From Liolophura sinensis (Eukaryota), in assembly GCF_032854445.1 (NCBI RefSeq), contig NC_088300.1, forward strand, positions 74,512,302 through 74,576,301: DNA of 64,000 bases. The letters run 5' to 3'. How positions within the stretch are numbered: the first letter of the stretch is position 1; the number at the start of each line of letters is the position of its first letter. The position numbers were made by a program, and so were the translations under genes. The notes below the pieces were generated by a model. It made no database searches. It had not been told where the DNA came from and worked only from the letters and a program-made list of their open reading frames with translations. Below are positions 1-25,816 of this stretch, one piece after another.

Positions 1-545
1 TGCACTACGGCGTTGTTCCATTCAACTTGCCTAAGCATATCCGATATTCTTTTCTGCGCTGTCTTTTTGTCACAAGTCAGGAAAAGACACATTGAGAACT
101 GGAGGTGGTACTTGTAGCATTATAAACATACTTAATTTAAGAGTCCAATTCGACCGTTTTATGTAATGTGCCAAAATACACCTTACAAAGTACATGTATC
201 AATTTGATTTACTTCTTCATATCAAACATCAAAGACTACCATCCAGCTGCTAAATCATTCTCTGAAAATCTAGTCCAGACAAAGAGAAATTACTTACCAA
301 TTATTTTTTAGCAGTGAGAAAAATTTTCTCTTCTGTGTAGGCCACCGGCCACGCAGCAGGGATCTGACTTCGGCAAATCATCATAGAAGTAATGAAGATC
401 CATGCTCACCGCATTTATTTGAGAAGGTCTTCATCGTATGATTACCTTTCTCACAAGCACTAATCGTAACAAGTCGCTCACCTTCTAGGGCACAGGTCGC
501 ACAACATCAAACGGTTCTGTGAGAGTGAGTAGAAAATCTCTAGCA

Positions 546-553
546 TATATAAA
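546..553 (+). promoter_or_regulatory. TATA box (TATATAAA) 87 bp upstream of the unit ATG. It recurs every 1891 bp (2437, 4328, ...). Predicted TSS is about 575-585.
   Basis: gcaTATATAAAtcc lies about 30 bp upstream of caggtaccatatcc and then the ATG at 640. The motif is conserved in every unit, with single-base variants such as cacatataa in a few. Confidence 0.5.
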
Positions 554-639
554 TCCTTTTTCAAACTTGCAGGTACCATATCCAATCTATCACACAGTCC
601 AAGCATAGTCGACAATAATTTCCATTGATTCAACTCAGA

Positions 640-1233
640 ATGGATGTAGAAAGAATGGCCGCACTGCTCAGAGAAAATTTACTTCTTCATGACGCCGCTC
701 TCCGCAAAATTCAATTGCTCGGTATGTTCCCTTACTAAACTTGTACTTGCGTTGCATGAGTTTGTTTTAGGAGAATGCGCATGTTGTCTTAGCATTAACT
801 GTATCTTATACCATTCTTTTATATTTTTTCAGAACAAAGACAAGAGGCTACTGAACGACGAATAAGAGCAGCAACATCCAACGGGCATACACCATGCCAC
901 GAACTGCTCCTTCTGCAAAAACACATTCTTGCCGATACCAAAGCCTTGTACCAGCATTACCGACAGGAGAAATGGGATGAAGTTCAACGCGTGGCAGCCA
1001 GAGTCTTACAAACCAGCCAGGAAGACAGCGACGATGAGGACATGGGGGAGGTATTAATAAGTGTCGATGATGATAATGATGATGATGATCAATATTTTGA
1101 TGAAGGTGACCACAATTCTGTTGACGACAGCCAATCTACCACTCATCCACAGGCCTTTGACAGCACCGCCATGCATAGTTTTTCCCGTTTTACACGAGAT
1201 TTTTACATATCTTCAACTCGACAAGATAACTAA
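640..1233 (+). CDS. Array gene copy 1. It has two exons (640-721, 833-1233) and a 111-nt GT-AG intron (722-832), and encodes a 160-aa coiled-coil protein with an acidic tail (E variant, DEGDH).
   Basis: ATG at 640. Exon 1 is 82 nt and ends ...CAATTGCTCG|gtatgt. The acceptor is ttttttcag|AACAAAG. Splicing keeps the frame (G+AA=Glu) and runs into listed ORF 946..1233. The stop is TAA at 1231. Protein: [160 protein letters not shown]. Confidence 0.6.
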
Positions 1234-1313
1234 ATTGTTATTTCACCAATGTCACGTTTTTCTTTCCATCATTCTTTCTCCATCGCACTGTGCTATGTAT
1301 GGTTTATTGGCCA

Positions 1314-1319
1314 AATAAA
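1314..1319 (+). terminator. AATAAA polyadenylation signal 81 bp downstream of the unit stop codon. It recurs every 1891 bp.
   Basis: ggccAAATAAAaaactattttatc follows the TAA at 1231-1233. It sits downstream of every copy. Confidence 0.5.
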
Positions 1320-2530
1320 AAACTATTTTATCACCTGAATACAGTCCATACCTTTGCCTCATGTCTGTATTATATTGAAAAGAAACATACATGCCAATTT
1401 CTCATAAAACAGTTCTACTTCTCGTATCCGAAAATATCGTTTTATATATGGATGTTTTAACAAATTAACAACAAAACCTTACATCTTGTCACAACTCTGT
1501 CTTAAGTAGCACTGGAAAACGCCCAGAAAGACTATGTAATACAAAATCCTATCTCGAACAAGCACAGTTTGGGCCTAAACAACTGCAAATCTTATCGCAC
1601 ACATGTGTTGTGCCTGTTACGCTTCATACTTATCAAATTTTCACTTTTGCAAATTTCATTTAGCCGTACTGACGAATATCTAAATCATATTGGCTGAAAA
1701 GAGTTAGCCTCTGTTTAGTTCACATTACAACAATTAACGGGTACAATTTTCAAGTACTAGTAAAACTTACATAACCGCACTTGAAATATACAAACTCTGC
1801 ATCACCATTATTGCGCACAGTGAAATGTACCTGCATGCCAAACCTCCCCAGTAAAAGCCTTAAAAATCTTCTCTCTTCAACTTAGTCTGGCTGCACTACG
1901 GCGTTGTTCCATTCAACTTGCCTAAGCATATCCGATATTCTTTTCTGCGCTGTCTTTTTGTCACAAGTCAGGAAAAGACACATTGAGAACTGGAGGTGGT
2001 ACTTGTAGCATTATAAACATACTTAATTTAAGAGTCCAATTCGACCGTTTTATGTAATGTGCCAAAATACACCTTACAAAGTACATGTATTAATCTGATT
2101 TACTTCTTCATATCAAACATCAGAGACTACCATCCAGCTGCTAAATCATTCTCTGAAAATCTAGTCCAGACAAAGAGAAATTACTTACCAATTATTTTTT
2201 AGCAATGAGAAAAATTTTCTCTTCTGTGTAGGCCACCGGCCACGCAGCAGGGATCTGACTTCGGCAAATCATCATAGAAGTAATGAAGATCCATGCTCAC
2301 CGCATTTATTTGAGAAGGTCTTCATCGTATGATTACCTTTCTCACAAGCACTAATCGTAACAAGTCGCTCACCTTCTAGGGCACAGGTCGCACAACATCA
2401 AACGGTTCTGTGAGAGTGAGTAGAAAATCTCTAGCACATATAATTCCTTTCTCAAACTTGCAGGTACCATATCCAATCTATCACACAGTCCAAGCATAGT
2501 CGACAATAATTTCCATTGATTCAACTCAGA

Positions 2531-3124
2531 ATGGATGTAGAAAGAATGGCCGCACTGCTCAGAGAAAATTTACTTCTTCATGACGCCGCTCTCCGCAAAA
2601 TTCAATTGCTCGGTATGTTCCCTTACTAAACTTGTACTTGCGTTCCATGAGTTTGTTTTAGGAGAATGCGCATGTTGTCTTAGCATTAACTGTATCTTAT
2701 ACCATTCTTTTATATTTTTTCAGAACAAAGACAAGAGGCTACTGAACGACGAATAAGAGCAGCAACATCCAACGGGCATACACCATGCCACGAACTGCTC
2801 CTTCTGCAGAAACACATTCTTGCCGATACCAAAGCCTTGTACCAGCATTACCGACAGGAGAAATGGGATGAAGTTCAACGCGTGGCAGCCAGAGTCTTAC
2901 AAACCAGCCAGGAAGACAGCGACGATGAGGACATGGGGGAGGTATTAATAAGTGTCGATGATGATAATGATGATGATGATCAATATTTTGATGAAGGTGA
3001 CCACAATTCTGTTGACGACAGCCAATCTACCACTCATCCACAGGCCTTTGACAGCACCGCCATGCATAGTTTTTCCCGTTTTACACGAGATTTTTACATA
3101 TCTTCAACTCGACAAGATAACTAA
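2531..3124 (+). CDS. Array gene copy 2 (exons 2531-2612, 2724-3124), intact, E variant.
   Basis: Same structure as copy 1, shifted by 1891 bp. ATG at 2531 was checked in the sequence. Confidence 0.6.
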
Positions 3125-4421
3125 ATTGTTATTTCACCAATGTCACGTTTTTCTTTCCATCATTCTTTCTCCATCGCACTGTGCTATGTATGGTTTATTG
3201 GCCAAATAAAAAACTATTTTACCACCTGAATACAGTCCATACCTTTGCCTCATGTCTGTATTATATTGAAAAGAAACATACATGCCAATTTCTCATAAAA
3301 CAGTTCTACTTCTCGTATCCGAAAATATCGTTTTATATATGGATGTTTTAACAAATTAACAACAAAACCTTACATCTTGTCACAACTCTGTCTTAAGTAG
3401 CACTGGAAAACGCCCAGAAAGACTATGTAATACAAAATCCTATCTCGAACAAGCACAGTTTGGGCCTAAACAACTGCAAATCTTATCGCACACATGTGTT
3501 GTGCCTGTTACGCTTCATACTTATCAAATTTTCACTTTTGCAAATTTCATTTAGCCGTACTGACGAATATCTAAATCATATTGGCTGAAAAGAGTTAGCC
3601 TCTGTTTAGTTCACATTACAACAATTAACGGGTACAATTTTCAAGTACTATTAAAACTTACATAACCGCACTTGAAATATACAAACTCTGCATCACCATT
3701 ATTGCGCACAGTGAAATGTACCTGCATGCCAAACCTCCCCAGTAAAAGCCTTAAAAATCTTCTCTCTTCAACTTAGTCTGGCTGCACTACGGCGTTGTTC
3801 CATTCAACTTGCCTAAGCATATCCGATATTCTTTTCTGCGCTGTCTTTTTGTCACAAGTCAGGAAAAGACACATTGAGAACTGGAGGTGGTACTTGTAGC
3901 ATTATAAACATACTTAATTTAAGAGTCCAATTCGACCGTTTTATGTAATGTGCCAAAATACACCTTACAAAGTACATGTATCAATTTGATTTACTTCTTC
4001 ATATCAAACATCAAAGACTACCATCCAGCTGCTAAATCATTCTCTGAAAATCTAGTCCAGACAAAGAGAAATTACTTACCAATTATTTTTTAGCAGTGAG
4101 AAAAATTTTCTCTTCTGTGTAGGCCACCGGCCACGCAGCAGGGATCTGACTTCGGCAAATCATCATAGAAGTAATGAAGATCCATGCTCACCGCATTTAT
4201 TTGAGAAGGTCTTCATCGTATGATTACCTTTCTCACAAGCACTAATCGTAACAAGTCGCTCACCTTCTAGGGCACAGGTCGCACAACATCAAACGGTTCT
4301 GTGAGAGTGAGTAGAAAATCTCTAGCATATATAAATCCTTTTTCAAACTTGCAGGTACCATATCCAATCTATCACACAGTCCAAGCATAGTCGACAATAA
4401 TTTCCATTGATTCAACTCAGA

Positions 4422-5015
4422 ATGGATGTAGAAAGAATGGCCGCACTGCTCAGAGAAAATTTACTTCTTCATGACGCCGCTCTCCGCAAAATTCAATTGC
4501 TCGGTATGTTCCCTTACTAAACTTGTACTTGCGTTGCATGAGTTTGTTTTAGGAGAATGCGCATGTTGTCTTAGCATTAACTGTATCTTATACCATTCTT
4601 TTATATTTTTTCAGAACAAAGACAAGAGGCTACTGAACGACGAATAAGAGCAGCAACATCCAACGGGCATACACCATGCCACGAACTGCTCCTTCTGCAA
4701 AAACACATTCTTGCCGATACCAAAGCCTTGTACCAGCATTACCGACAGGAGAAATGGGATGAAGTTCAACGCGTGGCAGCCAGAGTCTTACAAACCAGCC
4801 AGGAAGACAGCGACGATGAGGACATGGGGGAGGTATTAATAAGTGTCGATGATGATAATGATGATGATGATCAATATTTTGATGACGGTGACCACAATTC
4901 TGTTGACGACAGCCAATCTACCACTCATCCACAGGCCTTTGACAGCACCGCCATGCATAGTTTTTCCCGTTTTACACGAGATTTTTACATATCTTCGACT
5001 CGACAAGATAACTAA
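4422..5015 (+). CDS. Array gene copy 3 (exons 4422-4503, 4615-5015), intact, D variant (DDGDH).
   Basis: Same structure as copy 1 at +1891 spacing. GAA to GAC gives E to D in the acidic tail. Confidence 0.6.
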
Positions 5016-6312
5016 ATTGTTATTTCACCAATGTCACGTTTTTCTTTCCATCATTCTTTCTCCATCGCACTGTGCTATGTATGGTTTATTGGCCAAATAA
5101 AAAACTATTTTATCACCTGAATACAGTCCATACCTTTGCCTCATGTCTGTATTATATTGAAAAGAAACATACATGCCAATTTCTCACAAAACTGTTCTGC
5201 TTCTCGTATCCGAAAATATCGTTTTATATATGGATGTTTTAACAAATTAACAACAAAACCTTACATCTTGTCACAACTCTGTCTTAAGTAGCACTGGAAA
5301 ACGCCCAGAAAGACTATGTAATACAAAATCCTATCTCGAACAAGCACAGTTTGGGCCTAAACAACTGCAAATCTTATCGCACACATGTGTTGTGCCTGTT
5401 ACGCTTCATACTTATCAAATTTTCACTTTTGCAAATTTCATTTAGCCGTACTGACGAATATCTAAATCATATTGGCTGAAAAGAGTTAGCCTCTGTTTAG
5501 TTCACATTACAACAATTAACGGGTACAATTTTCAAGTACTAGTAAAACTTACATAACCGCACTTGAAATATACAAAATCTACATCACCATTTTTGCGCAC
5601 AGTGAAATGTACCTGCATGCCAAACCTCCCCAGTAAAAGCCTTAAAAATCTTCTCTCTTGAACTTAGTCTGGCTGCACTACGGCGTTGTTCCATTCAACT
5701 TGCCTAAGCATATCCGATATTCTTTTCTGCGCTGTCTTTTCGTCACAAGTCAGGCAAAGACACATTGAGAACTGGAGGTGGTACTTGTAGCATTATAAAC
5801 ATACTTAATTTAAGAGTCCAATTCGACCGTTTTATGTAATGTGCCAAAATACACCTTACAAAGTACATGTATTAATCTGATTTACTTCTTCATATCAAAC
5901 ATCAGAGACTACCATCCAGCTGCTAAATCATTCTCTGAAAATCTAGTCCAGACAAAGAGAAATTACTTACCAATTATTTTTTAGCAATGAGAAAAATTTT
6001 CTCTTCTGTGTAGGCCACCGGCCACGCAGCAGGGATCTGACTTCGGCAAATCATCATAGAAGTAATGAAGATCCATGCTCACCGCATTTATTTGAGAAGG
6101 TCTTCATCGTATGATTACCTTTCTCACAAGCACTAATCGTAACAAGTCGCTCACCTTCTAGGGCACAGGTCGCACAACATCAAACGGTTCTGTGAGAGTG
6201 AGTAGAAAATCTCTAGCATATATAAATCCTTTCTCAAACTTGCAGGTACCATATCCAATCTATCACACAGTCCAAGCATAGTCGACAATAATTTCCATTG
6301 ATTCAACTCAGA

Positions 6313-6906
6313 ATGGATGTAGAAAGAATGGCCGCACTGCTCAGAGAAAATTTACTTCTTCATGACGCCGCTCTCCGCAAAATTCAATTGCTCGGTATGT
6401 TCCCTTACTAAACTTGTACTTGCGTTCCATGAGTTTGTTTTAGGAGAATGCGCATGTTGTCTTAGCATTAACTGTATCTTATACCATTCGTTTATATTTT
6501 TTCAGAACAAAGACAAGAGGCTACTGAACGACGAATAAGAGCAGCAACATCCAACGGGCATACACCATGCCACGAACTGCTCCTTCTGCAGAAACACATT
6601 CTTGCCGATACCAAGGCCTTGTACCAGCATTACCGACAGGAGAAATGGGATGAAGTTCAACGCGTGGCAGCCAGAGTCTTACAAACCAGCCAGGAAGACA
6701 GCGACGATGAGGACATGGGGGAGGTATTAATAAGTGTCGATGATGATAATGATGATGATGATCAATATTTTGATGACGGTGACCACAATTCTGTTGACGA
6801 CAGCCAATCTACCACTCATCCACAGGCCTTTGACAGCACCGCCATGCATAGTTTTTCCCGTTTTACACGAGATTTTTACATATCTTCGACTCGACAAGAT
6901 AACTAA
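6313..6906 (+). CDS. Array gene copy 4 (exons 6313-6394, 6506-6906), intact, D variant.
   Basis: Periodic copy with ATG, intron and stop all conserved. Confidence 0.6.
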
Positions 6907-8203
6907 ATTGTTATTTCACCAATGTCACGTTTTTCTTTCCATCATTCTTTCTCCATCGCACTGTGCTATGTATGGTTTATTGGCCAAATAAAAAACTATT
7001 TTATCACCTGAATACAGTCCATACCTTTGCCTCATGTCTGTATTATATTGAAAAGAAACATACATGCCAATTTCTCATAAAACAGTTCTACTTCTCGTAT
7101 CCGAAAATATCGTTTTATATATGGATGTTTTAACAAATTAACAACAAAACCTTACATCTTGTCACAACTCTGTCTTAAGTAGCACTGGAAAACGCCCAGA
7201 AAGACTATGTAATACAAAATCCTATCTCGAACAAGCACAGTTTGGGCCTAAACAACTGCAAATCTTATCGCACACATGTGTTGTGCCTGTTACGCTTCAT
7301 ACTTATCAAATTTTCACTTTTGCAAATTTCATTTAGCCGTACTGACGAATATCTAAATCATATTGGCTGAAAAGAGTTAGCCTCTGTTTAGTTCACATTA
7401 CAACAATTAACGGGTACAATTTTCAAGTACTAGTAAAACTTACATAACCGCACTTGAAATATACAAACTCTGCATCACCATTATTGCGCACAGTGAAATG
7501 TACCTGCATGCCAAACCTCCCCAGTAAAAGCCTTAAAAATCTTCTCTCTTCAACTTAGTCTGGCTGCACTACGGCGTTGTTCCATTCAACTTGCCTAAGC
7601 ATATCCGATATTCTTTTCTGCGCTGTCTTTTTGTCACAAGTCAGGAAAAGACACATTGAGAACTGGAGGTGGTACTTGTAGCATTATAAACATACTTAAT
7701 TTAAGAGTCCAATTCGACCGTTTTATGTAATGTGCCAAAATACACCTTACAAAGTACATGTATTAATCTGATTTACTTCTTCATATCAAACATCAGAGAC
7801 TACCATCCAGCTGCTAAATCATTCTCTGAAAATCTAGTCCAGACAAAGAGAAATTACTTACCAATTATTTTTTAGCAATGAGAAAAATTTTCTCTTCTGT
7901 GTAGGCCACCGGCCACGCAGCAGGGATCTGACTTCGGCAAATCATCATAGAAGTAATGAAGATCCATGCTCACCGCATTTATTTGAGAAGGTCTTCATCG
8001 TATGATTACCTTTCTCACAAGCACTAATCGTAACAAGTCGCTCACCTTCTAGGGCACAGGTCGCACAACATCAAACGGTTCTGTGAGAGTGAGTAGAAAA
8101 TCTCTAGCATATATAAATCCTTTCTCAAACTTGCAGGTACCATATCCAATCTATCACACAGTCCAAGCATAGTCGACAATAATTTCCATTGATTCAACTC
8201 AGA

Positions 8204-8797
8204 ATGGATGTAGAAAGAATGGCCGCACTGCTCAGAGAAAATTTACTTCTTCATGACGCCGCTCTCCGCAAAATTCAATTGCTCGGTATGTTCCCTTACT
8301 AAACTTGTACTTGCGTTCCATGAGTTTGTTTTAGGAGAATGCGCATGTTGTCTTAGCATTAACTGTATCTTATACCATTCTTTTATATTTTTTCAGAACA
8401 AAGACAAGAGGCTACTGAACGACGAATAAGAGCAGCAACATCCAACGGGCATACACCATGCCACGAACTGCTCCTTCTGCAGAAACACATTCTTGCCGAT
8501 ACCAAAGCCTTGTACCAGCATTACCGACAGGAGAAATGGGATGAAGTTCAACGCGTGGCAGCCAGAGTCTTACAAACCAGCCAGGAAGACAGCGACGATG
8601 AGGACATGGGGGAGGTATTAATAAGTGTCGATGATGATAATGATGATGATGATCAATATTTTGATGAAGGTGACCACAATTCTGTTGACGACAGCCAATC
8701 TACCACTCATCCACAGGCCTTTGACAGCACCGCCATGCATAGTTTTTCCCGTTTTACACGAGATTTTTACATATCTTCAACTCGACAAGATAACTAA
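8204..8797 (+). CDS. Array gene copy 5 (exons 8204-8285, 8397-8797), intact, E variant.
   Basis: ATG at 8204 checked. Structure conserved. Confidence 0.6.
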
Positions 8798-10094
8798 ATT
8801 GTTATTTCACCAATGTCACGTTTTTCTTTCCATCATTCTTTCTCCATCGCACTGTGCTATGTATGGTTTATTGGCCAAATAAAAAACTATTTTATCACCT
8901 GAATACAGTCCATACCTTTGCCTCATGTCTGTATTATATTGAAAAGAAACATACATGCCAATTTCTCATAAAACAGTTCTACTTCTCGTATCCGAAAATA
9001 TCGTTTTATATATGGATGTTTTAACAAATTAACAACAAAACCTTACATCTTGTCACAACTCTGTCTTAAGTAGCACTGGAAAACGCCCAGAAAGACTATG
9101 TAATACAAAATCCTATCTCGAACAAGCACAGTTTGGGCCTAAACAACTGCAAATCTTATCGCACACATGTGTTGTGCCTGTTACGCTTCATACTTATCAA
9201 ATTTTCACTTTTGCAAATTTCATTTAGCCGTACTGACGAATATCTAAATCATATTGGCTGAAAAGAGTTAGCCTCTGTTTAGTTCACATTACAACAATTA
9301 ACGGGTACAATTTTCAAGTACTAGTAAAACTTACATAACCGCACTTGAAATATACAAAATCTGCATCACCATTTTTGCGCACAGTGAAATGTACCTGCAT
9401 GCCAAACCTCCCCAGTAAAAGCCTTAAAAATCTTCTCTCTTCAACTTAGTCTGGCTGCACTACGGCGTTGTTCCATTCAACTTGCCTAAGCATATCCGAT
9501 ATTCTTTTCTGTGCTGTCTTTTTGTCACAAGTCAGGCAAAGACACATTGAGAACTGGAGGTGGTACTTGTAGCATTATAAACATACTTAATTTAAGAGTC
9601 CAATTCGACCGTTTTATGTAATGTGCCAAAATACACCTTACAAAGTACATGTATTAATCTGATTTACTTCTTCATATCAAACATCAGAGACTACCATCCA
9701 GCTGCTAAATCATTCTCTGAAAATCTAGTCCAGACAAAGAGAAATTACTTACCAATTATTTTTTAGCAATGAGAAAAATTTTCTCTTCTGTGTAGGCCAC
9801 CGGCCACGCAGCAGGGATCTGACTTCGGCAAATCATCATAGAAGTAATGAAGATCCATGCTCACCGCATTTATTTGAGAAGGTCTTCATCGTATGATTAC
9901 CTTTCTCACAAGCACTAATCGTAACAAGTCGCTCACCTTCTAGGGCACAGGTCGCACAACATCAAACGGTTCTGTGAGAGTGAGTAGAAAATCTCTAGCA
10001 TATATAAATCCTTTCTCAAACTTGCAGGTACCATATCCAATCTATCACACAGTCCAAGCATAGTCGACAATAATTTCCATTGATTCAACTCAGA

Positions 10095-10688
10095 ATGGAT
10101 GTAGAAAGAATGGCCGCACTGCTCAGAGAAAATTTACTTCTTCATGACGCCGCTCTCCGCAAAATTCAATTGCTCGGTATGTTCCCTTACTAAACTTGTA
10201 CTTGCGTTCCATGAGTTTGTTTTAGGAGAATGCGCATGTTGTCTTAGCATTAACTGTATCTTATACCATTCTTTTATATTTTTTCAGAACAAAGACAAGA
10301 GGCTACTGAACGACGAATAAGAGCAGCAGCATCCAACGGGCATACACCATGCCACGAACTGCTCCTTCTGCAGAAACACATTCTTGCCGATACCAAGGCC
10401 TTGTACCAGCATTACCGACAGGAGAAATGGGATGAAGTTCAACGCGTGGCAGCCAGAGTCTTACAAACCAGCCAGGAAGACAGCGACGATGAGGACATGG
10501 GGGAGGTATTAATAAGTGTCGATGATGATAATGATGATGATGATCAATATTTTGATGAAGGTGACCACAATTCTGTTGACGACAGCCAATCTACCACTCA
10601 TCCACAGGCCTTTGACAGCACCGCCATGCATAGTTTTTCCCGTTTTACACGAGATTTTTACATATCTTCGACTCGACAAGATAACTAA
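10095..10688 (+). CDS. Array gene copy 6 (exons 10095-10176, 10288-10688), intact, E variant with T39A (GCAGCAGCATCC).
   Basis: Periodic copy. The ACA to GCA substitution is shared with copies 8, 10, 14, 15 and 18. Confidence 0.6.
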
Positions 10689-11985
10689 ATTGTTATTTCA
10701 CCAATGTCACGTTTTTCTTTCCATCATTCTTTCTCCATCGCACTGTGCTATGTATGGTTTATTGGCCAAATAAAAAACTATTTTATCACCTGAATACAGT
10801 CCATACCTTTGCCTCATGTCTGTATTATATTGAAAAGAAACATACATGCCAATTTCTCATAAAACAGTTCTACTTCTCGTATCCGAAAATATCGTTTTAT
10901 ATATGGATGTTTTAACAAATTAACAACAAAACCTTACATCTTGTCACAACTCTGTCTTAAGTAGCACTGGAAAACGCCCAGAAAGACTATGTAATACAAA
11001 ATCCTATCTCGAACAAGCACAGTTTGGGCCTAAACAACTGCAAATCTTATCGCACACATGTGTTGTGCCTGTTACGCTTCATACTTATCAAATTTTCACT
11101 TTTGCAAATTTCATTTAGCCGTACTGACGAATATCTAAATCATATTGGCTGAAAAGAGTTAGCCTCTGTTTAGTTCACATTACAACAATTAACGGGTACA
11201 ATTTTCAAGTACTAGTAAAACTTACATAACCGCACTTGAAATATACAAACTCTGCATCACCATTATTGCGCACAGTGAAATGTACCTGCATGCCAAACCT
11301 CCCCAGTAAAAGCCTTAAAAATCTTCTCTCTTCAACTTAGTCTGGCTGCACTACGGCGTTGTTCCATTCAACTTGCCTAAGCATATCCGATATTCTTTTC
11401 TGCGCTGTCTTTTTGTCACAAGTCAGGAAAAGACACATTGAGAACTGGAGGTGGTACTTGTAGCATTATAAACATACTTAATTTAAGAGTCCAATTCGAC
11501 CGTTTTATGTAATGTGCCAAAATACACCTTACAAAGTACATGTATTAATCTGATTTACTTCTTCATATCAAACATCAGAGACTACCATCCAGCTGCTAAA
11601 TCATTCTCTGAAAATCTAGTCCAGACAAAGAGAAATTACTTACCAATTATTTTTTAGCAATGAGAAAAATTTTCTCTTCTGTGTAGGCCACCGGCCACGC
11701 AGCAGGGATCTGACTTCGGCAAATCATCATAGAAGTAATGAAGATCCATGCTCACCGCATTTATTTGAGAAGGTCTTCATCGTATGATTACCTTTGTCAC
11801 AAGCACTAATCGTAACAAGTCGCTCACCTTCTAGGGCACAGGTCGCACAACATCAAACGGTTCTGTGAGAGTGAGTAGAAAATCTCTAGCATATATAAAT
11901 CCTTTCTCAAACTTGCAGGTACCATATCCAATCTATCACACAGTCCAAGCATAGTCGACAATAATTTCCATTGATTCAACTCAGA

Positions 11986-12579
11986 ATGGATGTAGAAAGA
12001 ATGGCCGCACTGCTCAGAGAAAATTTACTTCTTCATGACGCCGCTCTCCGCAAAATTCAATTGCTCGGTATGTTCCCTTACTAAACTTGTACTTGCGTTC
12101 CATGAGTTTGTTTTAGGAGAATGCGCATGTTGTCTTAGCATTAACTGTATCTTATACCATTCTTTTATATTTTTTCAGAACAAAGACAAGAGGCTACTGA
12201 ACGACGAATAAGAGCAGCAACATCCAACGGGCATACACCATGCCACGAACTGCTCCTTCTGCAGAAACACATTCTTGCCGATACCAAAGCCTTGTACCAG
12301 CATTACCGACAGGAGAAATGGGATGAAGTTCAACGCGTGGCAGCCAGAGTCTTACAAACCAGCCAGGAAGACAGCGACGATGAGGACATGGGGGAGGTAT
12401 TAATAAGTGTCGATGATGATAATGATGATGATGATCAATATTTTGATGAAGGTGACCACAATTCTGTTGACGACAGCCAATCTACCACTCATCCACAGGC
12501 CTTTGACAGCACCGCCATGCATAGTTTTTCCCGTTTTACACGAGATTTTTACATATCTTCAACTTGACAAGATAACTAA
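11986..12579 (+). CDS. Array gene copy 7. A CGA to TGA change at 12565-12567 removes the last 4 residues (R157 to stop). The copy is probably still functional.
   Basis: The ORF track shows 91 aa ending ...ISST at 12567 instead of 95 aa. The sequence reads tca act TGA caa gat aac taa. Confidence 0.5.
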
Positions 12580-13876
12580 ATTGTTATTTCACCAATGTCA
12601 CGTTTTTCTTTCCATCATTCTTTCTCCATCGCACTGTGCTATGTATGGTTTATTGGCCAAATAAAAAACTATTTTATCACCTGAATACAGTCCATACCTT
12701 TGCCTCATGTCTGTATTATATTGAAAAGAAACATACATGCCAATTTCTCATAAAACAGTTCTACTTCTCGTATCCGAAAATATCGTTTTATATATGGATG
12801 TTTTAACAAATTAACAACAAAACCTTACATCTTGTCACAACTCTGTCTTAAGTAGCACTGGAAAACGCCCAGAAAGACTATGTAATACAAAATCCTATCT
12901 CGAACAAGCACAGTTTGGGCCTAAACAACTGCAAATCTTATCGCACACATGTGTTGTGCCTGTTACGCTTCATACTTATCAAATTTTCACTTTTGCAAAT
13001 TTCATTTAGCCGTACTGACGAATATCTAAATCATATTGGCTGAAAAGAGTTAGCCTCTGTTTAGTTCACATTACAACAATTAACGGGTACAATTTTCAAG
13101 TACTAGTAAAACTTACATAACCGCACTTGAAATATACAAAATCTGCATCACCATTTTTGCGCACAGTGAAATGTACCTGCATGCCAAACCTCCCCAGTAA
13201 AAGCCTTAAAAATCTTCTCTCTTCAACTTAGTCTGGCTGCACTACGGCGTTGTTCCATTCAACTTGCCTAAGCATATCCGATATTCTTTTCTGTGCTGTC
13301 TTTTTGTCACAAGTCAGGCAAAGACACATTGAGAACTGGAGGTGGTACTTGTAGCATTATAAACATACTTAATTTAAGAGTCCAATTCGACCGTTTTATG
13401 TAATGTGCCAAAATACACCTTACAAAGTACATGTATTAATCTGATTTACTTCTTCATATCAAACATCAGAGACTACCATCCAGCTGCTAAATCATTCTCT
13501 GAAAATCTAGTCCAGACAAAGAGAAATTACTTACCAATTATTTTTTAGCAATGAGAAAAATTTTCTCTTCTGTGTAGGCCACCGGCCACGCAGCAGGGAT
13601 CTGACTTCGGCAAATCATCATAGAAGTAATGAAGATCCATGCTCACCGCATTTATTTGAGAAGGTCTTCATCGTATGATTACCTTTCTCACAAGCACTAA
13701 TCGTAACAAGTCGCTCACCTTCTAGGGCACAGGTCGCACAACATCAAACGGTTCTGTGAGAGTGAGTAGAAAATCTCTAGCATATATAAATCCTTTCTCA
13801 AACTTGCAGGTACCATATCCAATCTATCACACAGTCCAAGCATAGTCGACAATAATTTCCATTGATTCAACTCAGA

Positions 13877-14470
13877 ATGGATGTAGAAAGAATGGCCGCA
13901 CTGCTCAGAGAAAATTTACTTCTTCATGACGCCGCTCTCCGCAAAATTCAATTGCTCGGTATGTTCCCTTACTAAACTTGTACTTGCGTTCCATGAGTTT
14001 GTTTTAGGAGAATGCGCATGTTGTCTTAGCATTAACTGTATCTTATACCATTCTTTTATATTTTTTCAGAACAAAGACAAGAGGCTACTGAACGACGAAT
14101 AAGAGCAGCAGCATCCAACGGGCATACACCATGCCACGAACTGCTCCTTCTGCAGAAACACATTCTTGCCGATACCAAGGCCTTGTACCAGCATTACCGA
14201 CAGGAGAAATGGGATGAAGTTCAACGCGTGGCAGCCAGAGTCTTACAAACCAGCCAGGAAGACAGCGACGATGAGGACATGGGGGAGGTATTAATAAGTG
14301 TCGATGATGATAATGATGATGATGATCAATATTTTGATGAAGGTGACCACAATTCTGTTGACGACAGCCAATCTACCACTCATCCACAGGCCTTTGACAG
14401 CACCGCCATGCATAGTTTTTCCCGTTTTACACGAGATTTTTACATATCTTCGACTCGACAAGATAACTAA
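13877..14470 (+). CDS. Array gene copy 8 (exons 13877-13958, 14070-14470), intact, E variant with T39A.
   Basis: Periodic copy with conserved signals. Confidence 0.6.
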
Positions 14471-15767
14471 ATTGTTATTTCACCAATGTCACGTTTTTCT
14501 TTCCATCATTCTTTCTCCATCGCACTGTGCTATGTATGGTTTATTGGCCAAATAAAAAACTATTTTATCACCTGAATACAGTCCATACCTTTGCCTCATG
14601 TCTGTATTATATTGAAAAGAAACATACATGCCAATTTCTCATAAAACAGTTCTACTTCTCGTATCCGAAAATATCGTTTTATATATGGATGTTTTAACAA
14701 ATTAACAACAAAACCTTACATCTTGTCACAACTCTGTCTTAAGTAGCACTGGAAAACGCCCAGAAAGACTATGTAATACAAAATCCTATCTCGAACAAGC
14801 ACAGTTTGGGCCTAAACAACTGCAAATCTTATCGCACACATGTGTTGTGCCTGTTACGCTTCATACTTATCAAATTTTCACTTTTGCAAATTTCATTTAG
14901 CCGTACTGACGAATATCTAAATCATATTGGCTGAAAAGAGTTAGCCTCTGTTTAGTTCACATTACAACAATTAACGGGTACAATTTTCAAGTACTAGTAA
15001 AACTTACATAACCGCACTTGAAATATACAAAATCTACATCACCATTTTTGCGCACAGTGAAATGTACCTGCATGCCAAACCTCCCCAGTAAAAGCCTTAA
15101 AAATCTTCTCTCTTCAACTTAGTCTGGCTGCACTACGGCGTTGTTCCATTCAACTTGCCTAAGCATATCCGATATTCTTTTCTGCGCTGTCTTTTCGTCA
15201 CAAGTCAGGCAAAGACACATTGAGAACTGGAGGTGGTACTTGTAGCATTATAAACATACTTAATTTAAGAGTCCAATTCGACCGTTTTATGTAATGTGCC
15301 AAAATACACCTTACAAAGTACATGTATTAATCTGATTTACTTCTTCATATCAAACATCAGAGACTACCATCCAGCTGCTAAATCATTCTCTGAAAATCTA
15401 GTCCAGACAAAGAGAAATTACTTACCAATTATTTTTTAGCAATGAGAAAAATTTTCTCTTCTGTGTAGGCCACCGGCCACGCAGCAGGGATCTGACTTCG
15501 GCAAATCATCATAGAAGTAATGAAGATCCATGCTCACCGCATTTATTTGAGAAGGTCTTCATCGTATGATTACCTTTCTCACAAGCACTAATCGTAACAA
15601 GTCGCTCACCTTCTAGGGCACAGGTCGCACAACATCAAACGGTTCTGTGAGAGTGAGTAGAAAATCTCTAGCACATATAAATCCTTTCTCAAACTTGCAG
15701 GTACCATATCCAATCTATCACACAGTCCAAGCATAGTCGACAATAATTTCCATTGATTCAACTCAGA

Positions 15768-16361
15768 ATGGATGTAGAAAGAATGGCCGCACTGCTCAGA
15801 GAAAATTTACTTCTTCATGACGCCGCTCTCCGCAAAATTCAATTGCTCGGTATGTTCCCTTACTAAACTTGTACTTGCGTTGCATGAGTTTGTTTTAGGA
15901 GAATGCGCATGTTGTCTTAGCATTAACTGTATCTTATACCATTCTTTTATATTTTTTCAGAACAAAGACAAGAGGCTACTGAACGACGAATAAGAGCAGC
16001 AACATCCAACGGGCATACACCATGCCACGAACTGCTCCTTCTGCAGAAACACATTCTTGCCGATACCAAAGCCTTGTACCAGCATTACCGACAGGAGAAA
16101 TGGGATGAAGTTCAACGCGTGGCAGCCAGAGTCTTACAAACCAGCCAGGAAGACAGCGACGATGAGGACATGGGGGAGGTATTAATAAGTGTCGATGATG
16201 ATAATGATGATGATGATCAATATTTTGATGACGGTGACCACAATTCTGTTGACGACAGCCAATCTACCACTCATCCACAGGCCTTTGACAGCACCGCCAT
16301 GCATAGTTTTTCCCGTTTTACACGAGATTTTTACATATCTTCAACTCGACAAGATAACTAA
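15768..16361 (+). CDS. Array gene copy 9 (exons 15768-15849, 15961-16361), intact, D variant.
   Basis: Periodic copy with conserved signals. Confidence 0.6.
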
Positions 16362-17658
16362 ATTGTTATTTCACCAATGTCACGTTTTTCTTTCCATCAT
16401 TCTTTCTCCATCGCACTGTGCTATGTATGGTTTATTGGCCAAATAAAAAACTATTTTATCACCTGAATACAGTCCATACCTTTGCCTCATGTCTGTATTA
16501 TATTGAAAAGAAACATACATGCCAATTTCTCACAAAACTGTTCTGCTTCTCGTATCCGAAAATATCGTTTTATATATGGATGTTTTAACAAATTAACAAC
16601 AAAACCTTACATCTTGTCACAACTCTGTCTTAAGTAGCACTGGAAAACGCCCAGAAAGACTATGTAATACAAAATCCTATCTCGAACAAGCACAGTTTGG
16701 GCCTAAACAACTGCAAATCTTATCGCACACATGTGTTGTGCCTGTTACGCTTCATACTTATCAAATTTTCACTTTTGCAAATTTCATTTAGCCGTACTGA
16801 CGAATATCTAAATCATATTGGCTGAAAAGAGTTAGCCTCTGTTTAGTTCACATTACAACAATTAACGGGTACAATTTTCAAGTACTAGTAAAACTTACAT
16901 AACCGCACTTGAAATATACAAAATCTGCATCACCATTTTTGCGCACAGTGAAATGTACCTGCATGCCAAACCTCCCCAGTAAAAGCCTTAAAAATCTTCT
17001 CTCTTCAACTTAGTCTGGCTGCACTACGGCGTTGTTCCATTCAACTTGCCTAAGCATATCCGATATTCTTTTCTGCGCTGTCTTTTTGTCACAAGTCAGG
17101 AAAAGACACATTGAGAACTGGAGGTGGTACTTGTAGCATTATAAACATACTTCATTTAAGAGTCCAATTCGACCGTTTTATGTAATGTGCCAAAATACAC
17201 CTTACAAAGTACATGTATCAATTTGATTTACTTCTTCATATCAAACATCAAAGACTACCATCCAGCTGCTAAATCATTCTCTGAAAATCTAGTCCAGACA
17301 AAGAGAAATTACTTACCAATTATTTTTTAGCAGTGAGAAAAATTTTCTCTTCTGTGTAGGCCACCGGCCACGCAGCAGGGATCTGACTTCGGCAAATCAT
17401 CATAGAAGTAATGAACATCCATGCTCACCGCATTTATTTGAGAAGGTCTTCATCGTATGATTACCTTTCTCACAAGCACTAATCGTAACAAGTCGCTCAC
17501 CTTCTAGGGCACAGGTCGCACAACATCAAACGGTTCTGTGAGAGTGAGTAGAAAATCTCTAGCATATATAAATCCTTTTTCAAACTTGCAGGTACCATAT
17601 CCAATCTATCACACAGTCCAAGCATAGTCGACAATAATTTCCATTGATTCAACTCAGA

Positions 17659-18252
17659 ATGGATGTAGAAAGAATGGCCGCACTGCTCAGAGAAAATTTA
17701 CTTCTTCATGACGCCGCTCTCCGCAAAATTCAATTGCTCGGTATGTTCCCTTACTAAACTTGTACTTGCGTTGCATGAGTTTGTTTTAGGAGAATACGCA
17801 TGTTGTCTTAGCATTGACTGTATCTTATACCATTCTTTTATATTTTTTCAGAACAAAGACAAGAGGCTACTGAACGACGAATAAGAGCAGCAGCATCCAA
17901 CGGGCATACACCATGCCACGAACTGCTCCTTCTGCAGAAACACATTCTTGCCGATACCAAGGCCTTGTACCAGCATTACTGACAGGAGAAATGGGATGAA
18001 GTTCAACGCGTGGCAGCCAGAGTCTTACAAACCAGCCAGGAAGACAGCGACGATGAGGACATGGGGGAGGTATTAATAAGTGTCGATGATGATAATGATG
18101 ATGATGATCAATATTTTGATGAAGGTGACCACAATTCTGTTGACGACAGCCAATCTACCACTCATCCACAGGCCTTTGACAGCACCGCCATGCATAGTTT
18201 TTCCCGTTTTACACGAGATTTTTACATATCTTCAACTCGACAAGATAACTAA
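17659..18252 (+). pseudogene. Array gene copy 10. A nonsense mutation (R71 CGA to TGA at 17980-17982) truncates the protein to 70 aa.
   Basis: The sequence reads cag cat tac TGA cag gag. The ORF track shows only the 80-aa downstream fragment starting at 18010. Confidence 0.65.
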
Positions 18253-19549
18253 ATTGTTATTTCACCAATGTCACGTTTTTCTTTCCATCATTCTTTCTCC
18301 ATCGCACTGTGCTATGTATGGTTTATTGGCCAAATAAAAAACTATTTTATCACCTGAATACAGTCCATACCTTTGCCTCATGTCTGTATTATATTGAAAA
18401 GAAACATACATGCCAATTTCTCACAAAACTGTTCTGCTTCTCGTATCCGAAAATATCGTTTTATATATGGATGTTTTAACAAATTAACAACAAAACCTTA
18501 CATCTTGTCACAACTCTGTCTTAAGTAGCACTGGAAAACGCCCAGAAAGACTATGTAATACAAAATCCTATCTCGAACAAGCACAGTTTGGGCCTAAACA
18601 ACTGCAAATCTTATCGCACACATGTGTTGTGCCTGTTACGCTTCATACTTATCAAATTTTCACTTTTGCAAATTTCATTTAGCCGTACTGACGAATATCT
18701 AAATCATATTGGCTGAAAAGAGTTAGCCTCTGTTTAGTTCACATTACAACAATTAACGGGTACAATTTTCAAGTACTAGTAAAACTTACATAACCGCACT
18801 TGAAATATACAAAATCTGCATCACCATTTTTGCGCACAGTGAAATGTACCTGCATGCCAAACCTCCCCAGTAAAAGCCTTAAAAATCTTCTCTCTTCAAC
18901 TTAGTCTGGCTGCACTACGGCGTTGTTCCATTCAACTTGCCTAAGCATATCCGATATTCTTTTCTGCGCTGTCTTTTTGTCACAAGTCAGGCAAAGACAC
19001 ATTGAGAACTGGAGGTGGTACTTGTAGCATTATAAATATACTTAATTTAAGAGTCCAATTCGACCGTTTTATGTAATGTGCCAAAATACACCTTACAAAG
19101 TACATGTATTAATCTGATTTACTTCTTCATATCAAACATCAGAGACTACCATCCAGCTGCTAAATCATTCTCTGAAAATCTAGTCCAGACAAAGAGAAAT
19201 TACTTACCAATTATTTTTTAGCAATGAGAAAAATTTTCTCTTCTGTGTAGGCCACCGGCCACGCAGCAGGGATCTGACTTCGGCAAATCATCATAGAAGT
19301 AATGAAGATCCATGCTCACCGCATTTATTTGAGAAGGTCTTCATCGTATGATTACCTTTCTCACAAGCACTAATCGTAACAAGTCGCTCACCTTCTAGGG
19401 CACAGGTCGCACAACATCAAACGGTTCTGTGAGAGTGAGTAGAAAATCTCTAGCACATATAAATCCTTTCTCAAACTTGCAGGTACCATATCCAATCTAT
19501 CACACAGTCCAAGCATAGTCGACAATAATTTCCATTGATTCAACTCAGA

Positions 19550-20143
19550 ATGGATGTAGAAAGAATGGCCGCACTGCTCAGAGAAAATTTACTTCTTCAT
19601 GACGCCGCTCTCCGCAAAATTCAATTGCTCGGTATGTTCCCTTACTAAACTTGTACTTGCGTTGCATGAGTTTGTTTTAGGAGAATGCGCATGTTGTCTT
19701 AGCATTAACTGTATCTTATACCATTCTTTTATATTTTTTCAGAACAAAGACAAGAGGCTACTGAACGACGAATAAGAGCAGCAACATCCAACGGGCATAC
19801 ACCATGCCACGAACTGCTCCTTCTGCAGAAACACATTCTTGCCGATACCAAAGCCTTGTACCAGCATTACCGACAGGAGAAATGGGATGAAGTTCAACGC
19901 GTGGCAGCCAGAGTCTTACAAACCAGCCAGGAAGACAGCGACGATGAGGACATGGGGGAGGTATTAATAAGTGTCGATGATGATAATGATGATGATGATC
20001 AATATTTTGATGACGGTGACCACAATTCTGTTGACGACAGCCAATCTACCACTCATCCACAGGCCTTTGACAGCACCGCCATGCATAGTTTTTCCCGTTT
20101 TACACGAGATTTTTACATATCTTCAACTCGACAAGATAACTAA
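19550..20143 (+). CDS. Array gene copy 11 (exons 19550-19631, 19743-20143), intact, D variant.
   Basis: Periodic copy with conserved signals. Confidence 0.6.
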
Positions 20144-21440
20144 ATTGTTATTTCACCAATGTCACGTTTTTCTTTCCATCATTCTTTCTCCATCGCACTG
20201 TGCTATGTATGGTTTATTGGCCAAATAAAAAACTATTTTATCACCTGAATACAGTCCATACCTTTGCCTCATGTCTGTATTATATTGAAAAGAAACATAC
20301 ATGCCAATTTCTCACAAAACAGTTCTACTTCTCGTATCCGAAAATATCGTTTTATATATGGATGTTTTAACAAATTAACAACAAAACCTTACATCTTGTC
20401 ACAACTCTGTCTTAAGTAGCACTGGAAAACGCCCAGAAAGACTATGTAATACAAAATCCTATCTCGAACAAGCACAGTTTGGGCCTAAACAACTGCAAAT
20501 CTTATCGCACACATGTGTTGTGCCTGTTACGCTTCATACTTATCAAATTTTCACTTTTGCAAATTTCATTTAGCCGTACTGACGAATATCTAAATCATAT
20601 TGGCTGAAAAGAGTTAGCCTCTGTTTAGTTCACATTACAACAATTAACGGGTACAATTTTCAAGTACTAGTAAAACTTACATAACCGCACTTGAAATATA
20701 CAAAATATGCATCACCTTTATTGCGCACAGTGAAATGTACCTGCATGCCAAACCTCCCCAGTAAAAGCCTTAAAAATCTTCTCTCTTCAACTTAGTCTGG
20801 CTGCACTACGGCGTTGTTCCATTCAACTTGCCTAAGCATATCCGATATTCTTTTCTGCGCTGTCTTTTTGTCACAAGTCAGGCAAAGACACATTGAGAAC
20901 TGGAGGTGGTACTTGTAGCATTATAAACATACTTAATTTAAGAGTCCAATTCGACCGTTTTATGTAATGTGCCAAAATACACCTTACAAAGTACATGTAT
21001 CAATTTGATTTACTTCTTCATATCAAACATCAAAGACAACCATCCAACTGCTAAATCATTCTCTGAAAATCTAGTCCAGACAAAGAGAAATTACTTACCA
21101 ATTATTTTTTAGCAATGAGAAAAATTTTCTCTTCTGTGTAGGCCACCGGCCACGCAGCAGGGATCTGACTTCGGCAAATCATCATAGAAGTAATGAACAT
21201 CCATGCTCACCGCATTTATTTGAGAAGGTCTTCATCGTATGATTACCTTTCTCACAAGCACTAATCGTAACAAGTCGCTCACCTTCTAGGGCACAGGTCG
21301 CACAACATCAAACGGTTCTGTGAGAGTGAGTAGAAAATCTCTAGCATATATAAATCCTTTTTCAAACTTGCAGGTACCATATCCAATCTATCACACAGTC
21401 CAAGCATAGTCGACAATAATTTCCATTGATTCAACTCAGA

Positions 21441-22034
21441 ATGGATGTAGAAAGAATGGCCGCACTGCTCAGAGAAAATTTACTTCTTCATGACGCCGCT
21501 CTCCGCAAAATTCAATTGCTCGGTATGTTCCCTTACTAAACTTGTACTTGCGTTCCATGAGTTTGTTTTAGGAGAATGCGCATGTTGTCTTAGCATTAAC
21601 TGTATCTTATACCATTCTTTTATATTTTTTCAGAACAAAGACAAGAGGCTACTGAACGACGAATAAGAGCAGCAACATCCAACGGGCATACACCATGCCA
21701 CGAACTGCTCCTTCTGCAGAAACACATTCTTGCCGATACCAAAGCCTTGTACCAGCATTACCGACAGGAGAAATGGGATGAAGTTCAACGCGTGGCAGCC
21801 AGAGTCTTACAAACCAGCCAGGAAGACAGCGACGATGAGGACATGGGGGAGGTATTAATAAGTGTCGATGATGATAATGATGATGATGATCAATATTTTG
21901 ATGACGGTGACCACAATTCTGTTGACGACAGCCAATCTACCACTCATCCACAGGCCTTTGACAGCACCGCCATGCATAGTTTTTCCCGTTTTACACGAGA
22001 TTTTTACATATCTTCAACTCGACAAGATAACTAA
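21441..22034 (+). CDS. Array gene copy 12 (exons 21441-21522, 21634-22034), intact, D variant.
   Basis: Periodic copy with conserved signals. Confidence 0.6.
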
Positions 22035-25222: not shown

Positions 25223-25816
25223 ATGGATGTAGAAAGAATGGCCGCACTGCTCAGAGAAAATTTACTTCTTCATGACGCCGCTCTCCGCAAAATTCAATTG
25301 CTCGGTATGTTCCCTTACTAAACTTGTACTTGCGTTCCATGAGTTTGTTTTAGGAGAATGCGCATGTTGTCTTAGCATTAACTGTATCTTATACCATTCT
25401 TTTATATTTTTTCAGAACAAAGACAAGAGGCTACTGAACGACGAATAAGAGCAGCAGCATCCAACGGGCATACACCATGCCACGAACTGCTCCTTCTGCA
25501 GAAACACATTCTTGCCGATACCAAGGCCTTGTACCAGCATTACCGACAGGAGAAATGGGATGAAGTTCAACGCGTGGCAGCCAGAGTCTTACAAACCAGC
25601 CAGGAAGACAGCGACGATGAGGACATGGGGGAGGTATTAATAAGTGTCGATGATGATAATGATGATGATGATCAATATTTTGATGAAGGTGACCACAATT
25701 CTGTTGACGACAGCCAATCTACCACTCATCCACAGGCCTTTGACAGCACCGCCATGCATAGTTTTTCCCGTTTTACACGAGATTTTTACATATCTTCGAC
25801 TCGACAAGATAACTAA
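25223..25816 (+). CDS. Array gene copy 14, intact, E variant with T39A.
   Basis: Periodic copy with conserved signals. Confidence 0.6.

Follow-up and report, generated by a model that had tools for sequence, protein, structure and literature searches.

Is the split reading frame at positions 640 to 1233 of a 64,000-nucleotide (nt) stretch of the Liolophura sinensis genome (contig NC_088300.1, positions 74,512,302 to 74,576,301 of the forward strand; the whole stretch is referred to as the window) a real gene, to what family would its product belong, and why is it repeated along the window? A sequence-only reading of this DNA had described a spliced orphan protein of 160 amino acids (aa) with a helical N-terminus and an extremely acidic tail, and had offered a chromatin or nucleic-acid-related role as a speculation. 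That interpretation as a whole was partly supported. The locus is very probably a real two-exon gene of a mollusc family, whose product is under purifying selection and combines a helical hairpin, a tail and a C-terminal motif, and which has been amplified into a young array of at least 26 copies, the majority of them intact.

Gene model and content of the repeat unit

Splicing of 640-1233 gives a coding sequence (CDS) of 483 nt, the translation of which is identical, residue for residue, to the 160-aa protein read earlier (Table 1 for the exons and signals). With A at -3 and G at +4, the ATG at 640 has a strong Kozak context; it is fixed as the start codon by homology, because the relatives start with MDVE, MDME or MEY. 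TATA-like boxes at a comparable distance from the ATG (about 90-100 nt) as well as AATAAA-type signals 3' of the stop are also present in three contigs carrying relatives, L007, L008 and L009. With L008, the similarity extends into the promoter, positions 413-710 of the unit matching L008 571-862 at 67.6% over 302 nt with the TATA box included (blastn, E=1e-19), while the remainder of the unit spacer gave zero cross-species match by blastn.

The same open reading frame (ORF) and intron recur in 25 further units and homologues occur in other species, and the ORF is therefore beyond chance. The overlapping ORF at 1061-1318 (MSMMIMMMM...), which lies in another frame, had been dismissed as a second gene, and rightly: in orthologues 6-8 stops interrupt the corresponding frame, the longest open stretch of which ranges from 46 to 76 codons, and for this reason the ORF is a by-product of GAT/GAN codon runs. 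The locus at 640-1233 is one copy of a real two-exon gene of RNA-polymerase-II type and no artefact.

In one unit, Rfam returned zero RNA gene, at the gathering threshold or at permissive settings, and ARAGORN zero transfer RNA (tRNA); consequently, the array is not built around an RNA gene. The unit shows no noteworthy terminal or inverted repeats, no second long ORF and no transposable-element hallmarks, and the protein gene is its sole recognisable content. A scan for bacterial promoters and terminators gave a background level, irrelevant to a eukaryotic gene, and an exact database look-up of the exon-2 ORF returned no record. A viral or transposon gene was considered and rejected, there being no relatives on viral contigs, no significant terminal repeats and no other ORF in the unit.

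A young tandem array with mostly intact copies

The first 30 nt of the CDS have 26 exact matches at a 1,891-bp spacing, with 0 expected by chance. The matches belong to a head-to-tail array with a mean pairwise identity of 99.16% among units, in each of which a TATA box and an AATAAA signal are found. As the window begins within the array, 26 is a minimum copy number. Unit 22 is 1,892 bp long owing to a 1-bp insertion, and unit 25 is the most divergent, with 18-33 differences from the others. A higher-order structure is visible among units 10-19 (17020-35929), in which unit 10 recurs without any change as unit 15, 11 is 1 nt away from 16, 12 is 2 nt away from 17, and the pairs 10/18 and 16/19 are each 3 nt apart. 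Because these units are identical or nearly so, multi-unit blocks were duplicated very recently.

Of the 26 copies, 20 are intact. The nonsense change R71* is found in three units and represents one mutation copied by block duplication, since two of these units (10 and 15) are identical and the third (18) is 3 nt apart. Unit 7 carries R157*, which removes the last four residues, and in unit 20 the splice acceptor is changed and the intron pattern was not found. The last copy is interrupted by an insertion, a perfect palindrome at 48643-48776 with arms GGCAAGGGAATATGGGA / TCCATATTCCCTTGCC around an (AT)50 tract at 48660-48759. A second palindrome, (TA)14 with long inverted arms, was noted at ~50395-50460. 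Head-to-tail order, high identity, a promoter, CDS and polyadenylation signal belonging to the unit itself and a majority of intact copies are thus all found together, as in a tandemly arrayed protein-coding gene.

Tandem arrays of protein genes are known from the early histone repeats of sea urchins, Drosophila Stellate, human TSPY and D4Z4/DUX4. The window array is like these in its few-kb head-to-tail complete transcription units, its concerted near-identity, its block duplication and its mix of intact and disabled copies; the encoded protein, on the other hand, is unrelated, and the likeness is one of genome organisation only.

Two compositional features of the array were also noted. Over 1-47702 the coding strand has a constant negative GC skew (about -0.16). 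The observed/expected ratio of CpG is 0.77 in the array and 0.62 in the flank, and CpG-associated transitions make up 10 of the 79 array variants, both nonsense mutations (CGA>TGA) among them.

Purifying selection on the protein

Selection within the array was assessed on 25 alignable units with 76 variable sites. The 82 nt of exon 1 are invariant across these units, whereas variation is highest in the intron, where 9 of the 111 nt are variable; exon 2 has 12 in 401 nt and all non-coding DNA together 64 in 1,408. The variable sites of the CDS consist of 6 nonsynonymous (out of ~381 sites) and 6 synonymous ones (out of ~99 sites), which gives a ratio of nonsynonymous to synonymous variability (pN/pS) of about 0.26 (Fisher p=0.02). 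Per site, nonsynonymous variants are a third as frequent as non-coding ones (p=0.007), while synonymous and non-coding densities are equal (p=0.46). The counts thus show the pattern of purifying selection on a protein, with nonsynonymous variants being disfavoured. Equal nonsynonymous and synonymous rates across copies, named in advance as the sign of a protein under no constraint, were not seen.

These same counts bear on the possibility of a decaying macrosatellite, that is, a repeat which carries a once-functional gene and whose copies are now neutral. Such a repeat could have accumulated the nonsense, splice-site or truncating lesions seen in 6 of the 26 copies, it would suit an array that adjoins transposon debris and ends in a truncated copy, and the overall difference in variability between CDS and non-coding DNA is marginal (p=0.059). 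It is nevertheless a very unlikely explanation: nonsynonymous variation is about four-fold lower than synonymous and non-coding variation, exon 1 is free of variation where the intron varies most, 20 copies retain the ORF, the splice sites, the TATA box and AATAAA, and the three R71* copies amount to a single event.

The comparison with orthologues that had been proposed along with the gene was made between species, on the spliced CDS of the window, L007, L009, L001, L006 and Mytilus. The synonymous proportion is saturated (0.76-0.92, set against a nonsynonymous proportion of 0.30-0.45, with 0.70-0.97 as the range over these CDS pairs), and the nonsynonymous proportion is 0.25-0.41 for the hairpin and 0.36-0.57 for the tail. 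Units of different species have no similarity as DNA apart from the CDS and the promoter shared with L008. Because synonymous sites are saturated and no other DNA similarity is left, the protein has been maintained across a divergence that erased all else.

A mollusc family without a functional name

A word-indexed homology search with the 160-aa protein returned nothing. That result proved falsely negative when the single 160-aa query was searched exhaustively with phmmer against 1.84 billion representatives, which gave nine matches at E<=1e-3, of which four reached E<=1e-10. Seven were accepted as relatives: P0001 (E=3e-28, 51% identity), the full-length P0002 (3e-20, 156 aa), P0003 (6e-19, 50% identity), P0004 (4e-18, 62% over 74 aa), the fragments P0005 (2e-6, 86 aa) and P0006 (5e-6, 83 aa), and P0009 (7e-4, 132 aa), which is the Mytilus galloprovincialis 'uncharacterized protein LOC143045536' (XP_076074232.1). 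The two others, P0007 (1,752 aa) and P0008 (ankyrin-like repeats with an NGHTxCVELL pattern), were judged spurious or low-complexity and kept out of the alignments. A profile search added M. galloprovincialis LOC143073461, an 'uncharacterized protein' of M. edulis and several metagenomic fragments, the Mytilus matches having E values of 1e-46 to 2e-28. Two metagenome-contig scans and one viral-contig scan gave no relatives, the first of the patterns used having excluded the KWEEVQ of L007.

The relatives from both searches rule out a true orphan, and this part of the earlier description falls with the best match at 3e-28; its other part, the lack of a known family, stands, given that no Pfam, PDB or fold match names one. 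Among ten members searched against Pfam, no family was matched by more than one at E<=1, the best being DUF7529 with 17.4 bits against a cutoff of 27, and the sub-threshold single-member matches (DUF7529, DUF3686, DUF2464 and others) were judged compositional. Sequence and profile searches of the PDB gave no match, the papers searched contained no mention of the family loci or motifs and nothing of relevance on mollusc tandem arrays or macrosatellites, and no relative bears a functional name. Curated families do not cover this family, the nearest annotated relatives being automatic 'uncharacterized protein' predictions. The 160-aa protein is the founding member of a small unnamed family conserved in molluscs.

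The family set comprises the window protein, P0001-P0006, P0009 and P0011-P0018, the relatives coming from Mytilus and from marine animals in metagenome and Logan contigs. An acidic-tail branch (window, L007, L009, P0002, P0005 and P0006/P0011) and a Mytilus-type branch, the tail of which is Ser/Thr/Pro-rich and non-acidic, were distinguished. Both have the hairpin motifs L-x-x-x-L-x-x-HD-x-A, an NG(H) loop and R-x-x-KW-[DN]-x-[VI]-Q, together with the C-terminal motif (D/E)F-x-[VI]-x-SR-x-(D/E), and membership was established on these. The best-conserved hairpin stretches are LLRExLLxHDAAxR and RQxKW(D/N)EVQRxAAxVL, with K74 and W75 invariant in alignments A1-A3; F151 is invariant in A3 and R157 in A2. 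The products of LOC143045536 and LOC143073461 and the M. edulis protein share with the window protein the same hairpin (H-D-x-A, the NG(H) loop, R-x-x-KW-N/D-x-V/I-Q) and the same C-terminal (D/E)F-x-V-x-SR-D motif, but are only 23-26% identical to it and have a Ser/Thr/Pro tail with no LISVDD block. An apparent orphan ORF thereby becomes a defined family with a domain plan, a conserved intron, purifying selection and short motifs that can be tested.

Intron conservation and multicopy organisation in relatives

The window gene, L007, L009, L006 and Mytilus L011 have in common one phase-1 intron, which follows the 'LL' codons (codon 27/28). In L007 (a JGI Botany Bay sample), an exon 1 of 82 nt is followed by an intron GTAAGT...CAG of 123 nt, and since this is a multiple of three, P0001 is explained as an intron read-through product. 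Exon 1 likewise measures 82 nt in L009 and L010 (Logan runs), where the intron has 112 nt, and L006 has the same exon split. In Mytilus LOC143073461 (L011), exon 1 is 91 nt long owing to three extra N-terminal codons, and the intron, of 277 nt, occupies the homologous phase-1 position. The intron is therefore ancestral to the family, its position being conserved from the window to Mytilus. Intronless versions are represented by P0002 on L001-L003, three Mytilus copies in L004, and L008, and are derived. Thus, with the intron position shared and the intronless forms derived, the homologues do not offer the differing exon structure that had been named as evidence against the gene. L008 has lost the codons for KWDEVQR...SQEDSD by a deletion followed by a frameshift (1005-1140) and retains its promoter, including the GCATATATAAA box; this locus suggests intron loss through recombination with complementary DNA in situ, not retroposition.

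The family is also found in multiple copies elsewhere. L001, L002 and L003, the ENA marine metagenome contigs that encode P0002, are circular permutations of one 1,687-bp unit, and L001 and L003, from different marine metagenome assemblies, a Tara Oceans sample among them, have terminal self-overlaps. The terminal overlaps of contigs of this unit measure 127 nt (100% identical) and, in L001, 146 nt (95.9%), and P0010, a one-residue variant of P0002, coexists with it. Because of the 95.9% overlap and of P0010, a 1,687-bp head-to-tail array with variant units is preferred to a circle. These contigs point to a second tandem array of the family, a circle being less probable, and their spacer has no similarity to that of the window.

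In M. galloprovincialis, three intronless members lie within 10 kb of L004 (10001-19537, OZ263153.1), in duplicated segments of ~1 kb that are irregularly spaced and 83-85% identical as DNA, the proteins being 88-89% identical. A large Sec7-domain gene, which runs on the opposite strand, contains this cluster in one of its introns, and only one of the three copies is among the called genes. The Mytilus genes are therefore locally multicopy, as the window gene is, and LOC143073461 keeps the intron position of the latter; the two differ in that this Mytilus cluster is intronless, lies inside a Sec7-type gene and consists of irregular 83-89% duplicates which are not homogenised. Taken together, the homogenised array of at least 26 copies, the 1.7-kb repeat elsewhere and the three-copy Mytilus cluster indicate a family with a tendency to multicopy organisation, and amplification in the family is either ancient and maintained, or recurrent. 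Arrays of such type are often collapsed or masked in assemblies and overlooked by annotation.

Copy-number histories of this kind raise the question of a selfish ampliconic gene, the expansion of which would be due to conflict within the genome (meiotic drive or the suppression of drive) and not to dosage required by the organism, as in the conflict systems Stellate/Su(Ste), Slx/Sly and Dox. The very young and highly identical array, in which ongoing block duplication spreads a nonsense allele, would agree with it, as would the origin of high copy number in two or more lineages whose spacer DNA is unrelated, the lineage restriction of the family with its fast-evolving tail, and the intronless germ-line-derived copies. 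However, long-term purifying selection on the hairpin and an intron position kept between the window and Mytilus are more in line with a conserved role in the cell than with an arms race, and no sex linkage, antagonist family or inverted copy producing small RNA was seen in the window. Amplification by conflict is accordingly regarded as unlikely.

Protein architecture and candidate motifs

The protein has a mass of 18.6 kDa and falls into three parts (Table 1). Residues 1-87 are slightly basic, with an isoelectric point (pI) of 8.98. The N-terminal part is predicted by AlphaFold2 as two antiparallel helices, at 3-43 and 48/50-91/93, with a predicted local distance difference test (pLDDT) score of ~90 from the single sequence and ~95 with family alignment A3 (range 84-97). 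The helical N-terminus expected from the sequence was in this way recovered by the model (helices 3-43 and 48-93, pLDDT about 90-97), and the acidic Asp/Glu-rich tail was likewise confirmed by the composition of residues 88-131. Of the searches meant to attach the protein to a known family, on the other hand, structure prediction with Foldseek yielded generic hairpins only, with no match below E=0.3, and the profile searches gave no assignment. Likewise, the hairpin modules of prefoldin, the ING N-terminal dimerisation domain, CHMP4B and PspA are 5-17% identical to that of the window protein and have no profile-level similarity to it, and more than 1,200 chains fit the window hairpin equally well, so that the resemblance is one of fold class only. 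The fold class is established, and no family assignment follows from it.

Among the alternatives is an ESCRT-III-like or other hairpin polymer in which, by analogy to CHMP proteins, a basic hairpin at the N-terminus would be followed by a C-terminal half that is acidic and autoinhibitory and by a motif for interaction at the C-terminus. The layout of the window protein would suit it; the ESCRT-III/Snf7 domain (PF03357), which has a four-helix core made of the hairpin plus alpha3 and alpha4, was not found, and a protein of this type is extremely improbable here.

The N-terminus, MDVERMAALLRENLLLHDAALRK, has charged residues at positions 2, 4, 5, 11, 12, 18, 22 and 23 and no hydrophobic run of 7 or more. 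By direct reading of the sequence, with no dedicated predictor run, no signal peptide or hydrophobic segment is evident, and the protein is therefore expected to be intracellular. A secreted acidic shell-matrix protein of the Aspein/Asprich type was rejected, since no signal peptide is evident. The protein includes the peptides ALYQHYR and VAARVLQTSQEDSDDEDMGEVLISVDDDNDDDDQYFDEGDHNSVDDSQSTTHPQAFDSTAMHSFSR.

The 44-residue acidic segment has a net charge of -19, and residues 97-137 are predicted to be disordered (AlphaFold2, pLDDT 36-55). Within it, the block E[VM]LISVD[DS], which hardly varies across the acidic branch, is present in the window protein, L007, L009, L006/P0006, P0005 and the L008 remnant, while P0002 has FMLSVDGDD; in the alignments of the Mytilus subgroup there is neither a LISVD block nor an acidic tail. 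The consensus of phospho-acidic SUMO-interaction motifs (SIMs) has a psi-psi-x-psi core amid Asp/Glu/Ser runs, as in PML (VVVISSSEDSD), Daxx (IIVLSDSD) and PIAS. As a sequence-consensus match (psi-psi-x-psi or psi-x-psi-psi core with acidic or phosphorylatable flanks), the EVLISVDD block looks like such a motif and is regarded as a candidate SIM. The tail resembles the SIM proteins in its L-I-S-V core with Asp/Glu/Ser runs on both sides, conserved in fast-evolving disorder; it differs from them in that there is no homology, the match is short and the Mytilus subgroup has none.

Downstream of this block, aromatic residues embedded in acidic runs recur in the acidic branch (QYFDE, QEYQD, EDFSE, SDFEEF, EEFWIE), reminiscent of the acidic-aromatic patches through which disordered tails of chaperones bind histones. 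In FACT, ANP32E and nucleoplasmin, histones are bound by disordered acidic regions, and by analogy patches such as DDDDQYFDEGD could bind histones or protamine-like proteins in a chaperone-like role. The charge of the acidic segment and the recurrence of acid-embedded aromatics in the acidic subgroup speak for such a role, and the high gene dosage recalls histone gene arrays. However, Pfam returned for none of the ten members a chaperone domain, including the folded cores that define the acidic-tailed histone chaperones nucleoplasmin (pentamer core), NAP/SET (NAP domain), ANP32 (LRR cap) and NASP (TPR), the PDB gave no sequence or profile match and the model is a helical hairpin only, the tail of the Mytilus members is Ser/Thr/Pro-rich and non-acidic, and the aromatic positions are not strictly aligned. 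A chaperone-like role thus seems improbable.

Because the whole acidic region is missing from the Mytilus branch, SUMO or histone-type binding is not the ancestral core function; the distribution of the motifs implies that the latter must reside in the hairpin and the C-terminal motif. For the C-terminal motif, AlphaFold2 with a shallow alignment predicts a low-confidence helix at 138-156 that is not docked onto the hairpin.

Proposed function of the amplified gene

On the whole, the explanation judged somewhat more probable than all others together is that of an amplified conserved gene for a small intracellular protein, tentatively an oligomerising adaptor made in bulk. In such a protein, the hairpin would serve as an oligomerisation or docking module and the acidic tail would offer linear motifs to a SUMO-type or basic partner, the former being suggested because the EVLISVDD block with its flanking CK2-type Ser/Asp/Glu residues fits the SIM consensus. 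The C-terminal motif may bind a second partner or fold back onto the hairpin. The array would allow rapid production of large amounts, the most plausible setting being the germ line or early embryo. As intronless derivatives recur in three lineages, the spliced messenger RNA would be present in germ-line cells. The mechanistic part of this explanation, i.e. docking by the hairpin, the SUMO-type or basic partner and the burst of dosage, remains tentative and is less probable than not.

Several observations weigh against the adaptor explanation. The within-array selection test uses 12 coding variable sites, which are small numbers, and 6 of the 26 copies (units 7, 10, 15, 18, 20 and 26) are disabled. 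The SIM reading is a consensus match alone, the Mytilus subgroup has neither the acidic tail nor the LISVD block, and the models do not dock the C-terminal helix with confidence. The alternatives rank, from the first, as a conflict-driven ampliconic gene, a histone or basic-protein binder, a decaying macrosatellite and an ESCRT-III-like polymer.

A further and rather improbable extension of the adaptor explanation is that these are mollusc-specific hairpin regulators kept recurrently as high-copy homogenised arrays, with units of 1.9 kb and 1.7 kb that arose independently in two lineages, and fired in a burst at a stage of short cell cycles (the onset of zygotic transcription or late gametogenesis), a spiralian counterpart of DUX4/Dux or miR-430 that would act via SUMO-dependent or chromatin-associated partners. 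If expression is germ-line or early-embryonic, the array would provide a handle on dosage-driven gene amplification in spiralians; otherwise, it is one more lineage-restricted gene.

Table 1. Positions in the window of the gene, its protein segments, the array and its variants, and the flanking features
Feature	Position	Strand	Remarks
TATA box TATATAAA	546..553	+	94 nt 5' of the ATG
Promoter and 5' region shared with L008	413..639	+	blastn
Exon 1, coding part	640..721	+	82 nt; codons 1-27 and first base of codon 28
Intron	722..832	+	111 nt; GT..AG, phase 1, GTATGT...TTTTTCAG
Exon 2, coding part	833..1233	+	401 nt including the TAA stop
AATAAA polyadenylation signal	1314..1319	+	81 nt 3' of the stop
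Predicted antiparallel two-helix hairpin, residues 3-93	646..1029 minus intron	+	AlphaFold2; loop SNGHTP at 43-48
Acidic segment, predicted disordered, residues 88-131	1012..1143	+	19 Asp/Glu, 0 Lys/Arg, pI 4.05
EVLISVDDD block, residues 100-108	1048..1074	+	within the acidic segment; resembles a SUMO-interaction motif
Conserved C-terminal motif, residues 142-160	1174..1230	+	...RDFYISSTRQDN; (D/E)F-x-[VI]-x-SR-x-(D/E)
Head-to-tail array	1..48642	+	26 units of 1,891 bp; runs past the 5' window edge
R157* (CGA>TGA), unit 7	12565	+	last four residues lost
R71* (CGA>TGA), unit 10	17980	+	same change at 27435 (unit 15) and 33108 (unit 18)
Splice acceptor AG>AC, unit 20	36761	+	unit position 832
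Unit 25	45386-47702		2,317 bp; ~426 bp extra, a patchwork of unit start, part of the 3' spacer and unit end
26th (last) gene copy, 3' end of array	48342..48642	+	cut in exon 2 by the palindromic (AT)50 insertion
tRNA-derived SINE-like element	49190-49556	-	tRNA-like head 49485-49556; (CACT)n-type tail ~49190-49205
87-aa ORF MRCGKQYTSQTSDLRSRMTLHREHINNEEY...	49671-49934	+	no Pfam match
Degenerate LTR-retrotransposon remnants	50738-52300	-	Integrase_H2C2 51208-51597 (E=4.5e-9); weak RVT_1 51763-52020
PUF60 orthologue, four exons	~60384-60581, 61080-61140, 61453-61671, 62830-62958	+	poly(U)-binding splicing factor

Flanking DNA

On its 3' side, the array is followed by transposon remnants and then by PUF60. 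By its content the window is metazoan chromosomal DNA, most probably of a mollusc, with the PUF60 exons as its only taxonomic clue. The head of the element resembling a short interspersed element (SINE) scored 29.2 bits with the Rfam tRNA model, barely at the threshold, and ARAGORN called no tRNA there. The ORF that follows it may represent a remnant of a GIY-YIG or Penelope-type endonuclease, although Pfam gave no support for this assignment. Beyond the degenerate remnants of long terminal repeat (LTR) retrotransposons, the best named match of the PUF60 exons is the PUF60 of the gastropod Elysia marginata, with 79% identity (E=1.5e-99).

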